A DNA stretch of 64,000 nucleotides from Candidatus Kaelpia aquatica (GTDB lineage: Bacteria; Omnitrophota; Gorgyraeia; Kaelpiales; Kaelpiaceae): positions 3-64,002 of the forward strand of contig JAVCCU010000008.1 in the NCBI GenBank assembly GCA_030765335.1. The letters run 5' to 3'. The notes beneath the pieces were generated by a model, which was not told the origin of the DNA, made no database searches, and saw nothing but the letters and a program-made list of their open reading frames with translations. The translations under genes were made by a program, and so were the position numbers. Numbering within the stretch: position 1 is the first letter of the stretch; every line of letters begins with the position of its first letter. Of the stretch, positions 34,944-36,637 are shown in pieces.

Positions 34944-36383
34944 TTAACCATGCATTTTTATTTTATTTACTTTGCATGTTTCAAGATAAGACAATAATAC
35001 TTTAGAACCAACTTTTAAATACCTCATAAATTCTGCAAAAGATTTTACATTTTTTATCCTGTTGCATATTTGTCGAGGGCGAAAGTAAAAAAGGATGTAG
35101 GCTTTTTTAATATACTTTTCTAGATCAACCTCTGAAATATTGCACCATAGATTAGGTAAACGTTGTTCCGAAACAACACCTTTAATATAAAGTTGCCAGA
35201 AGTCATAGCCAGTTATTTTTTTAAACTCTTCATGTAGTTTAGAACCCGGCTTTGCAATCATGCGACATATCTGGACATAATCCAAGTTTAGTTCCAAGGC
35301 AAACCTGGTTGTATCTCTGATAGTTTCAATTGTTTCTCCGGGATTACCGAATATAAAAAAACCTAGAGGTTTTATTTTGTATTTATTTAGCAATTTTATA
35401 CATCGCCTAACTTCTTCGGGTTCAATCTCCTTATTTATTGACTTAAGTATGCCCAAGCTCTTGCTTTCAATGCCAACAAATATTTTCTTACAACCTGCTT
35501 TTGAGGCTATCTTTATTATTTCCTCATCAAGCAGATCAACTCGAGACCTTGCAGACCATTCAATTTTCAAGTTCCTCTTTATTATCCCATCGCAAATTTG
35601 ATAAGCACGATTTCTATCTAAAAAGAAAACGGCATCAAAAAAGTCTATTTCACGAATTTTGAATTTTTTGTAACAGAGCTCTATTTCATCTACGACATTG
35701 ATAGGTGATCTATTGCGATAAGGGACGTTTGCTATCGCGCAGAATTTACAATTATAAGGACACCCTGTACTTGTAAGCATAATTGTAAAATTTTTTCTCT
35801 GAGATACAAAGGAATGATAAAGGTGATTAGGTAAAAGCTCGCGAGCTGGATAGGGATATTGGTCTAAATTTGCGAGTTCTGTTCTTGGTGGCTGAATTAT
35901 AATTTCTTCATTATCTCGATAAGCAATACCCTCTATCTCGGATAAAGGGGTTTTATTCTCCAAAGATGAAAGCAATTTGGGCAAAACATCTATCGCTTCT
36001 CCGATTACAGCATAGTCTATCTCTGGATAAAACATTGTCTCGTATGGATAGAGATCTAGATTTATACCTCCCACAAGAACCGGTAAATTGAGATTGTTTT
36101 TAAAGAATTGTATCCACTCTAAGTTGGTATGAAAATGGTAACTGTCGAGTCTAAAGGCCAAAATGTCGGGAGCAAATATTTTTATCAGTTTTAAAGTTTC
36201 TTTCTTGCTTAGTTTTAATGCATTGGCATCTATAATTTTGGCTCTATGCCCTGCTCTTTGAGCAATTGCAGCTACCCATGCTAATATTATCGGCGGGGGA
36301 AGAATAAACTCTTCATCTACAACAGATATATTTTCAGAAAAAAGTTTATGCTTAAAAGGAGGGAAAATAAAACATATCTTCAT
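34944..36383 (-). CDS. B12-binding (class B) radical SAM enzyme, a probable methyltransferase or other cobalamin-dependent radical-SAM tailoring enzyme.
   Basis: 479 aa ORF. The N-terminal ~150 aa have a Rossmann-like B12-binding domain layout (MKICFIFPP...). A radical-SAM CxxxCxxC motif follows (TGCPYNCKFC). Length and domain order are typical of B12-rSAM proteins. Confidence 0.7.
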   Translation of the reverse strand: MKICFIFPPFKHKLFSENISVVDEEFILPPPIILAWVAAIAQRAGHRAKIIDANALKLSKKETLKLIKIFAPDILAFRLDSYHFHTNLEWIQFFKNNLNLPVLVGGINLDLYPYETMFYPEIDYAVIGEAIDVLPKLLSSLENKTPLSEIEGIAYRDNEEIIIQPPRTELANLDQYPYPARELLPNHLYHSFVSQRKNFTIMLTSTGCPYNCKFCAIANVPYRNRSPINVVDEIELCYKKFKIREIDFFDAVFFLDRNRAYQICDGIIKRNLKIEWSARSRVDLLDEEIIKIASKAGCKKIFVGIESKSLGILKSINKEIEPEEVRRCIKLLNKYKIKPLGFFIFGNPGETIETIRDTTRFALELNLDYVQICRMIAKPGSKLHEEFKKITGYDFWQLYIKGVVSEQRLPNLWCNISEVDLEKYIKKAYILFYFRPRQICNRIKNVKSFAEFMRYLKVGSKVLLSYLETCKVNKIKMHG

Positions 36384-36385
36384 TT

Positions 36386-36637
36386 TTAAAATGCTTTCAG
36401 ACTATCTATCTTATTATTAAGTATCCCAATTGTAGCTTCTAATGCTGCGGATGATTGCTGTACTTTTATTTTATGTATAATTTTTGTATTTTCATATAAA
36501 CCAGTTGCTATAATTAGCGCTACCCAAAGAAAAAGTAAAAATAATTGCCATTTTTTTATCGAATTATTATTAGTCTTAAATTGCATCTTCACCATCATCT
36601 TACGAGATGTTCTATTTGTCAAGCAAGAGCATGGCAA
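36386..36637 (-). CDS. Small single-pass membrane protein, the first gene of the island operon. It uses a TTG start in the ORF track; an internal ATG (MMVKMQFK...) is plausible.
   Basis: 83 aa ORF with one strongly hydrophobic helix (WQLFLLFLWVALIIATGLY) followed by a ~40 aa polar/helical tail. It ends 2 nt upstream of the B12-rSAM gene. Confidence 0.3.
   Translation of the reverse strand: MPCSCLTNRTSRKMMVKMQFKTNNNSIKKWQLFLLFLWVALIIATGLYENTKIIHKIKVQQSSAALEATIGILNNKIDSLKAF

Follow-up and report, generated by a model that had tools for sequence, protein, structure and literature searches.

Class-B radical S-adenosylmethionine (SAM) enzymes, which combine a B12-binding domain with a radical SAM core, occur in pathways for antibiotics, cofactors, pigments, and lipids. 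Glycosylation through a lipid carrier is known from other systems: in the three-component type—GtrA/GtrB/Gtr*, ArnC/ArnEF/ArnT, CsbB/GtcA/YfhO, PpgS/Rv3632/Rv3779, and the pentofuranose systems (PMC11127046)—a GT2 glycosyltransferase, a flippase, and a GT-C transferase act on a lipid carrier. Here we describe a locus in which the two appear to come together, a six-gene operon in a 64,000-nucleotide (nt) stretch of Candidatus Kaelpia aquatica (Omnitrophota; contig JAVCCU010000008.1); we refer to the whole stretch as the window, and to the operon (29900-36637, minus strand) as the island. Our focus is on its class-B radical SAM protein of 479 amino acids (aa), encoded at 34944-36383 (minus strand). 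The system type and the enzyme class are each known, but their combination is undescribed in the literature that we searched: we found no report of a class-B radical SAM enzyme coupled, or fused, to polyprenyl-phosphate sugar or GT-C machinery, and neither this enzyme family, nor its fusion with a GT2, nor a role for radical SAM enzymes in a three-component system is described there.

We consider it probable that the island is a radical-SAM-rich module of lipid-carrier-dependent extracytoplasmic glycosylation, of the three-component type represented by GtrA/B/C, ArnC/ArnT, and PpgS/Rv3779. The likeness lies in the GT-C transferases of the island and, in relatives, in a Dpm1-type polyprenyl-phosphate sugar synthase with a flippase-like membrane protein alongside. 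Cytoplasmic tailoring of a lipid-linked monosaccharide also has precedents in ArnD, DprE1/E2, and the ORF13 epimerase, and in the latter two it comes before GT-C transfer (PMC11127046). The locus differs in that its tailoring enzymes would be three radical SAM proteins, one of them class B; that relatives have LPG_synthase_TM, not GtrA, as the flippase-like partner; and that the Kaelpia island has two GT-C paralogues and neither a GT2 nor a flippase gene.

A further comparison, by analogy, is with HpnI/HpnK/HpnJ, which make bacteriohopanetetrol cyclitol ether, and with calditol synthase (Cds). In both a GT2-derived sugar on a lipid is rearranged by a class-B radical SAM enzyme; HpnI/HpnJ provide the described case of such an enzyme acting on a GT2-made lipid-linked sugar, and calditol synthase a case by analogy (PMC13459092). 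HpnJ is not an orthologue of the 479-aa protein (160 bits against a cutoff of 577.6), no hopanoid genes lie near, and HpnI is not among the NCBIfam matches of the GT2 domain fused to the family in relatives, which resembles Dpm1/PpgS/AglJ/ArnC. The presence of GT-C transferases also suggests that the sugar is passed on, and not kept as a lipid head group as in HpnJ/Cds.

A class-B radical SAM protein outside the curated families

By architecture and predicted fold, the 479-aa protein is a class-B radical SAM enzyme. The class has no diagnostic sequence motif; the assignment follows from the Pfam B12-binding domain (PF02310; 44.2 bits, cutoff 32.1, residues 30-137), the Radical_SAM domain (PF04055; 72 bits, cutoff 29.5, residues 203-362), the CPYNCKFC motif, and a confident AlphaFold2 model that matches solved enzymes. 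An earlier interpretation of this DNA, made from its letters and open reading frames (ORFs) and here called the sequence-only reading, had proposed an N-terminal cobalamin-binding domain followed by CPYNCKFC, and the two Pfam searches confirm that order. The CX3CX2C motif reads C208-P-Y-N-C212-K-F-C215, its three Cys being invariant in an alignment of 34 family members; the N-terminal domain is very strongly conserved in the same alignment, including the GG pair (G105-G106) of the classical B12-binding motif.

The AlphaFold2 model, built on an alignment of 34 relatives (pLDDT 91, pTM 0.88), was compared with solved structures using Foldseek. It matched AprD4 (6fd2), MgmA (9ccb), TsrM (6wte), OxsB (5ul4), CysS (9n1b), and TokK (7kdx), all with a probability of 1.0, template modelling (TM) scores of 0.60-0.71, and 16-19% identity. 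These enzymes share with the 479-aa protein an N-terminal Rossmann-like domain and a partial TIM-barrel radical SAM core with CX3CX2C; they differ in that none is fused to a glycosyltransferase and in that they act on unrelated substrates (aminoglycoside, MCR glutamine, tryptophan, nucleoside, and carbapenem or cystobactamid intermediates). AprD4 is the best solved match by both sequence (78 bits) and structure (TM score 0.71), and the other five, all solved with cobalamin, match nearly as well. Cobalamin binding is predicted for the 479-aa protein. As for cobalamin-related context, the annotated parts of the window show no cob or btu genes, and a search of positions 28000-38000 with Rfam (E <= 1) returned three tRNAs and neither a cobalamin riboswitch nor any other RNA element.

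Judged by its NCBIfam scores, the protein belongs to no curated family. Its best full-length match is HpnJ (TIGR03471), which aligns over residues 35-462 (E 8.8e-47) at the 160 bits given above, well under the equivalog cutoff; BchE (TIGR02026) follows with 154 bits (cutoff 481), BzaD with 141 (cutoff 450), and the ladderane-cluster 'lipid biosynthesis B12-binding/radical SAM protein' with 123 (cutoff 360). Methylase families score lower still: PhpK 119 bits (cutoff 600), HpnR 87 (650), TsrM-type 45 (500), and KedN5 44 (700). No hopanoid genes (shc, or an hpnH, hpnI, hpnK context) occur in the annotated window or in the loci of relatives, and no bch genes were seen in this fermentative organism.

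The protein falls outside characterised families such as BchE, HpnJ, HpnP, and HpnR: every NCBIfam equivalog score is far under its cutoff, and the window contains no cognate pathway genes. Either of two findings would have overturned the sequence-only reading, the lack of a B12-binding domain or a place in a characterised family, and neither was made. Two of its expectations need revision. It held that enzymes of this kind typically C-methylate; the three best curated families, HpnJ, BchE, and BzaD, consist of class-B enzymes that do not methylate, and methylation is therefore just one possibility. It also drew on lipid pathways (hopanoid, bacteriochlorophyll, tetraether), a framing that does not suit the genomic neighbourhoods of the family—these are envelope-glycan clusters, not lipid-synthesis clusters.

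Recurrent fusion to a putative lipid-carrier sugar synthase

A homologue search with the 479-aa protein gave at least 666 matches; no fewer than 120 clusters among them reach 49% identity. The best 120 clusters are 49-75% identical to it over the full length and come mainly from Omnitrophota, with others from Elusimicrobiota/Endomicrobia, Planctomycetota, and Deltaproteobacteria bins; members at 43-45% identity are found in Chloroflexota and Woesearchaeota bins.

Fifty of the best 120 homologues (49-57% identity) carry a C-terminal GT2 domain (PF00535), which brings the fused protein to ~740 aa. The nearest curated families of this domain are PpgS (61 bits), AglJ (60), PgfS (53), the Dol-P-hexose transferase (46), and ArnC (43)—all of them polyprenyl- or dolichyl-phosphate sugar synthases, and all matched below cutoff, so the similarity is one of class and not of orthology. 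On the strength of these nearest families, the fused GT2 is predicted to be specific for polyprenyl phosphate. Fused and unfused forms are interleaved: identity averages 56% between the two sets and 59% among the unfused proteins, and the fused forms are spread over several identity clusters. The closest free-standing kin of the fused domain adjoin unfused orthologues of the B12-type radical SAM gene: such a GT2 gene lies 9 nt downstream in one homologous locus (L100; we number these loci with the prefix L), 68 nt upstream in another (L102), and nearby in three more (L006, L092, L104). By its gene arrangement, this recurrent fusion or adjacency constitutes a Rosetta-stone-type link between the radical SAM protein and a putative lipid-carrier sugar synthase.

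In three Omnitrophota loci (L014, L015, L111) the fused gene lies among housekeeping genes, such as those for PilT-type ATPases and pyruvate:ferredoxin oxidoreductase, which suggests that it belongs to the core genome there.

A conserved glycan neighbourhood

To describe the surroundings of the family we assembled 27 non-redundant loci, each with an orthologue of at least 40% identity. Clustering of the neighbouring proteins by BLAST alone missed divergent GT-C proteins; in its place, neighbours were labelled by iterated hidden Markov models (HMMs) and checked against Pfam, and the radical SAM models, which reached the whole superfamily, were settled by best score. The recurrent partners are GT2 proteins, PMT_2-like GT-C proteins, radical SAM proteins of the type encoded further along the island (329 and 330 aa) directly downstream, further B12-type radical SAM paralogues, class-I methyltransferases, and LPG_synthase_TM flippase-like proteins.

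Three of these partners were compared between ortholog loci of at least 8 kb (n = 20) and loci of paralogous B12-type radical SAM proteins (n = 91). A GT2 is found near the family in 15 of 20 ortholog loci and in 21 of 91 paralog loci (p = 2e-5), a GT-C in 12 of 20 and 14 of 91 (p = 1e-4), and a twitch/SPASM radical SAM protein in 11 of 20 and 20 of 91 (p = 0.005). The sequence-only reading had called the position upstream of a GT-C-like protein and two radical SAM proteins unusual; that context turns out to be conserved in the family across phyla, and the stronger signal is that a Dpm1-like GT2 is repeatedly fused or adjacent to its members.

The closest relative of the operon (L011/L175; 75% identity) has, in order, the small ORF, the B12-type radical SAM gene, LPG_synthase_TM (109 bits), PMT_2, and a homologue of the 329-aa radical SAM gene; the Kaelpia island corresponds to this cassette minus the flippase-like gene. 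Two other loci (L006 and L092) have the order GT-C, GT2, methyltransferase, LPG_synthase_TM, B12-type radical SAM, radical SAM, and LPG_synthase_TM is adjacent in L175/L011, L006, L092, and L008. Other neighbours include GT4, GT9 heptosyltransferase-like, and Wzy_C O-antigen-ligase-like proteins, a DegT aminotransferase, WbqC, an AsnB-like amidotransferase, and epimerases of the short-chain dehydrogenase/reductase type.

Two or more B12-type radical SAM genes occur in 13 of the 20 ortholog loci. Among the loci, glycan clusters (L006/L007, L008, L010, L016, L093, L099) hold 2-4 B12-type radical SAM paralogues and several twitch/SPASM radical SAM genes, a density that is unusually high for polysaccharide loci. 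The contig with the closest relative of the operon, CAZUSK010000046.1 (L012 / L011; 4.4 kb), is binned as 'uncultured Candidatus Saccharibacteria'; it is likely mis-binned, given that its content matches the Omnitrophota relatives. Its G+C content is 0.33 in the cluster part and 0.41 in the flanking gene.

A proposed pathway and its alternatives

In the pathway that we favour, a Dpm1-like GT2 would act at the cytoplasmic face of the membrane to attach a hexose or hexosamine to polyprenyl phosphate; this enzyme, fused or adjacent to the B12-type radical SAM protein in most relatives, would be encoded elsewhere in the Kaelpia genome. The class-B enzyme and the two twitch-type radical SAM proteins would then remodel the lipid-linked sugar by radical chemistry, again at the cytoplasmic face, with C-methylation, deoxygenation or dehydration, epimerisation, and an HpnJ/Cds-like ring contraction as candidate reactions. 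A flippase would move the product across the membrane, and the two paralogous GT-C enzymes would transfer it to envelope acceptors, which may be lipopolysaccharide, another glycan, or protein. It is consistent with sugar chemistry that the closest solved relatives of the island's radical SAM proteins include the carbohydrate-acting AprD4 and BlsE. The domain identities, the structure of the operon, the fusion, and the conserved neighbourhood are observed; the lipid-linked sugar as substrate, the order of events, the use of cobalamin, the type of reaction, and the acceptor are inferred.

A narrower proposal, which we offer tentatively and would not yet bet on, is that the family represents a radical SAM branch of lipid-carrier glycosylation: a class-B enzyme, often fused to a GT2, would perform radical chemistry on a polyprenyl-phosphate-linked sugar—either C-methylation or a ring contraction that gives a carbocycle, as with HpnJ or calditol—and a GT-C would install the product on the envelope. 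If true, Omnitrophota, Elusimicrobiota, Planctomycetota, and some DPANN archaea would carry undescribed surface sugars. The family is concentrated in uncultured phyla with chemically unknown envelopes, and its fusion proteins offer a self-contained, tractable point of entry, as one polypeptide should both make and modify the lipid-linked sugar. Radical chemistry would join the means of extracytoplasmic glycan diversification, and new C-branched, deoxy, or carbocyclic surface sugars are predicted. The Kaelpia window itself offers a more modest case: a divergent, GT2-less member on a low-GC island with an orphan small membrane protein.

Several observations weigh against the favoured pathway. 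Scans of the 64-kb window with tblastn and HMMs (ORFs of at least 60 aa) turned up no class-I methyltransferase, no GT2, and nothing recognisable as a flippase, LPG_synthase_TM included, so the pathway is locally incomplete and dependent on genes outside our view. Every match of the fused GT2 lies far below its curated cutoff, and the fused genes of L014, L015, and L111 have no GT-C within 10 kb. In the enrichment comparison the HMMs took their seeds from the ortholog loci, and the loci lack phylogenetic independence. AprD4, the top structural match, shares a similar N-terminal domain yet is not known to use cobalamin. Finally, our literature search found no experimental datum on any member of the family.

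The alternative that departs least from the favoured pathway differs from it only in chemistry and cofactor: the 479-aa protein would be a cobalamin-independent non-methylase of carbohydrates, a dehydratase or dehydrogenase resembling AprD4 or DesII/BtrN, with its Rossmann domain used to bind the substrate or a partner. We regard this as unlikely, though it is the strongest of the rivals. AprD4, which is not known to bind or use cobalamin, is the best solved match by sequence and by structure, but its model aligns to the radical SAM core only (residues 170-385), whereas the N-terminal domain scores above the PF02310 cutoff and, from residue ~30 on, aligns with genuine B12 families. The top curated families HpnJ, BchE, and BzaD are not methylases, separate class-I methyltransferases are frequent beside the family in homologous loci, and the annotated window parts and positions 28000-38000 lack, respectively, the cobalamin genes and riboswitch noted above. 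Set against this are the strong conservation of the N-terminal domain, G105-G106 included, and the cobalamin-bound structures of MgmA, TsrM, OxsB, CysS, and TokK, which match almost as well as AprD4.

Two other explanations would move the island away from glycan assembly. The radical SAM proteins might instead tailor membrane lipids, modifying a core lipid or the carrier's isoprenoid chain by methylation, cyclisation, or cross-linking in the manner of HpnP/R, GrsA/B, Gmm, Tes/MSS, or the ladderane cluster, with the GT-C proteins incidental or acting on lipid head groups. HpnJ, the ladderane-cluster protein, and HpnR (160, 123, and 87 bits) are indeed among the best NCBIfam matches, and the 329- and 330-aa radical SAM proteins weakly match HpnH (73 and 60 bits) and GDGT-MAS (27 bits), but the NCBIfam scores are all 3- to 7-fold under the family cutoffs. 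It is also true that class-B-like enzymes such as GrsA/B and Gmm act on isoprenoid chains (PMC13459092) and that polyprenyl carriers are themselves isoprenoids; the genes conserved beside the family, however, encode glycosyltransferases and glycan-assembly proteins, the enzyme fused to it is a GT2 that transfers sugar and not a lipid synthase, and neither the window nor the annotated homologous loci contain squalene-hopene cyclase, fatty-acid, plasmalogen, or ether-lipid genes. We hold this explanation to be improbable. More improbable by far is the maturation of a ribosomally synthesised and post-translationally modified peptide (RiPP), in which the small ORF would encode the precursor, the B12-type enzyme would C-methylate it, and the twitch/SPASM enzymes would cross-link it before glycosylation or export. 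The small ORF does lie immediately upstream of three radical SAM genes, and its two known copies have a conserved N-terminus and a variable C-terminus, a leader/core-like pattern; the conserved part, however, is a hydrophobic transmembrane helix, which is atypical for a leader peptide. SPASM/twitch and B12-type radical SAM enzymes are common RiPP maturases, and there are weak NCBIfam matches to PapB, SkfB, WgkB, ApyD, and rSAM_ocin_1. Yet 25 of 27 ortholog loci lack the small ORF while pairs of B12-type and other radical SAM genes persist there beside GT2 and GT-C genes, the island contains no gene for a protease, ABC exporter, or RiPP recognition element, and a fusion to a Dpm1-like GT2 would have no RiPP logic.

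The other enzymes of the island

The gene directly downstream of the class-B gene (33528-34934, minus strand) encodes a GT-C-fold, PMT_2/ArnT-like membrane glycosyltransferase of 468 aa, or 467 aa from an ATG according to the gene callers. Its PMT_2 score of 25.0 bits falls just under the cutoff of 26.1, and a direct sequence search of the PDB gave no match; a family profile was needed. The profile, made from 22 sequences of the 468-aa family, matches TMEM260 (5.9e-12), ArnT (3.6e-11), and AglB in the PDB. A low-confidence AlphaFold2 model based on a five-sequence alignment (pLDDT 62) matches GT-C proteins in all of its top 20 PDB hits, weakly. The last gene of the island (29900-31489, minus strand) encodes a second GT-C-fold membrane glycosyltransferase of 529 aa, with a PMT_2 score of 19.7 bits (cutoff 26.1) and a match to the family HMM; the two proteins are paralogues (27% identity, BLASTP E 9e-34). 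Most members of the GT-C family have a DE-type acidic motif after the first transmembrane helix, which here reads GHDIEW in the 468-aa protein and GEDFQ in its paralogue. The GT-C assignment, which the sequence-only reading had made for the downstream membrane protein, is supported for both proteins by the profile matches to TMEM260, ArnT, and AglB.

In an assembly from the same population (ERZ27315495), the first GT-C gene has a single base change, A to T on the coding strand, at window position 34556 (L002 position 3664). The gene is called there as two ORFs of 125 and 309 aa, and so the change probably creates a stop codon; the variant may be either a natural loss of function or an assembly error.

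Between the GT-C genes lie two radical SAM genes. The first (32462-33451, minus strand) encodes a 329-aa protein with a twitch/SPASM-type C-terminal Cys domain; it scores 101 bits against PF04055 and 21.7 against the SPASM model PF13186 (cutoff 21.5), and has conserved C252, C270, C299, and C302 besides CX3CX2C. Its orthologues directly adjoin the B12-type radical SAM gene in six loci (L006, L010, L016, L092, L102, L175). The second (31470-32462, minus strand) encodes a 330-aa paralogue, 34% identical to the first, with four conserved C-terminal Cys and no match to PF13186; its orthologues follow the 329-aa type in L010 and L016. The sequence-only reading had named both SPASM proteins. That both are radical SAM proteins holds, but the SPASM label is less apt: only one passes PF13186, marginally, and each family conserves only four C-terminal Cys besides CX3CX2C, a number that fits one auxiliary cluster, so that they are better described as twitch-like than as full SPASM proteins.

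By their CX3CX2C motif and C-terminal Cys-rich domain, the pair resembles twitch/SPASM enzymes that act on carbohydrates and cyclitols (BtrN, BlsE) or on peptides (SkfB, anSME, PqqE), and differs from them in the four C-terminal Cys, a SPASM domain having 7 Cys and two clusters. Their best PDB matches by sequence are SkfB, BlsE (a sugar-nucleoside decarboxylase), viperin-like enzymes, and anSME, and their best curated family is the PTO1314 family (118 bits, cutoff 306).

The small membrane protein

At the head of the operon, an 83-aa reading frame runs from a TTG at 36637 (36386-36637, minus strand). Three gene callers place the start further in, giving 70, 69, and 66 aa, and none uses the TTG; the 70-aa form spans 36386-36598 (minus strand), and a start at 36586 gives 66 aa. 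The product is a small single-pass membrane protein with a Lys-rich N-terminus, one transmembrane helix (Kyte-Doolittle mean 1.97 over WQLFLLFLWVALIIATGLY), and a C-terminal tail of ~33 aa. A promoter-like site, TTGACA-N17-GATGAT (36594-36622, minus strand), matches the consensus at 10 of 12 positions, with a perfect TTGACA, and overlaps the ATG-ATG start region. It falls downstream of the TTG, inside the 83-aa reading frame. The same arrangement, CTTGACAAATA...N17...GATGAT, is found upstream of the homologous small ORF in L175, where the remaining intergenic DNA is dissimilar. The site may be a conserved promoter that yields a short-leader or leaderless message beginning at MQFK... or MMVKM..., and with this promoter-like TTGACA conserved downstream of the TTG, the small ORF is probably 66-70 aa long, not 83. 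The sequence-only reading was correct about the single transmembrane helix and probably wrong about the length.

The sole homologue, a 71-aa ORF, occupies the corresponding place in L011/L175 (51% identity over 45 aa, E 1e-12). An exhaustive phmmer search of 1.84 billion representative proteins found no other, apart from repetitive transmembrane noise, and a word-indexed search returned only the query itself. Between the two copies SIKKWQLFL...GLYEN is conserved and the C-terminal tails are unrelated; nine codons differ by synonymous changes only, which suggests that the ORF is truly coding. Of the 27 ortholog loci, 25 lack the small ORF. With its single homologue it is not a conserved part of the system, and by this distribution we class it as a genuine lineage-specific accessory, not a core component. 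Its proposed role as an anchor or organiser of a complex finds no support in this distribution, as the conservation in homologous operons that such a role called for extends to one close relative only. The small ORF is co-transcribed with the radical SAM gene and, with only 2 nt from its stop to the radical SAM start codon, probably translationally coupled to it.

Operon structure and genomic setting

Six closely spaced ORFs fill the minus strand from 29900 to 36637, in the order small transmembrane protein, B12-type radical SAM, GT-C, two twitch/SPASM-type radical SAM proteins, and GT-C. Successive genes are separated by 2, 9, and 76 nt, and then overlap by 1 and 20 nt. The G+C content of the island is 0.322, the minimum among all 6.7-kb windows of the stretch (mean 0.377, standard deviation 0.016), and G+C at third codon positions is 0.21-0.32 in island genes versus 0.32-0.39 in flanking genes; the compact, compositionally distinct operon headed by the B12-type enzyme that the sequence-only reading described is thus real. 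A G+C content below that of the flanks is typical of surface-polysaccharide clusters, and is seen both in the Kaelpia island and in its relative L011.

Three tRNA genes, Gly(GCC), Leu(TAG), and Lys(CTT), are clustered at 29257-29582 (minus strand), 318 nt downstream of the last island gene, and the 5' side of tRNA-Lys borders the island. Integration of the island at this tRNA-Lys/Leu/Gly cluster was considered and rejected: with neither an integrase nor direct repeats at the flanks, the idea of a classical tRNA-integrated element finds no support. A 38-nt direct repeat, 82% identical, occurs at 30704-30741 and 34179-34216; it stems from the conserved LFIPF-FQG motif of the two GT-C paralogues and is not a mobile-element repeat. 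Beyond the tRNA genes lie a ptsN-like gene and then cofD/yvcK-like genes.

The 5' flank of the island consists of hydG, hydF, and a TM1266-like gene, and the rest of the window of housekeeping genes. The [FeFe]-hydrogenase maturation genes lie directly upstream of the island (36862-39861, minus strand) and encode HydG (498 aa, radical SAM and BATS domains), HydF (420 aa), and the TM1266-like small protein; no hydE was seen adjoining them. Candidatus Kaelpia aquatica was described from Ace Lake, Antarctica, as a fermentative member of the Omnitrophota with an [FeFe] hydrogenase. Genes for MetK (SAM synthetase) and S-adenosylhomocysteine hydrolase stand side by side at 20319-22748 (minus strand), ~7-10 kb downstream of the stretch with four radical SAM genes (the three of the island and hydG), which is probably coincidental. 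The window also holds two GH57-type genes—a 651-aa ORF (25522-27477), assigned by eye from its N-terminal motif, and a gene for a 534-aa Glyco_hydro_57 plus BE_C protein (52976-54580, minus strand)—and these agree with the glycogen metabolism reported for Candidatus Kaelpia.

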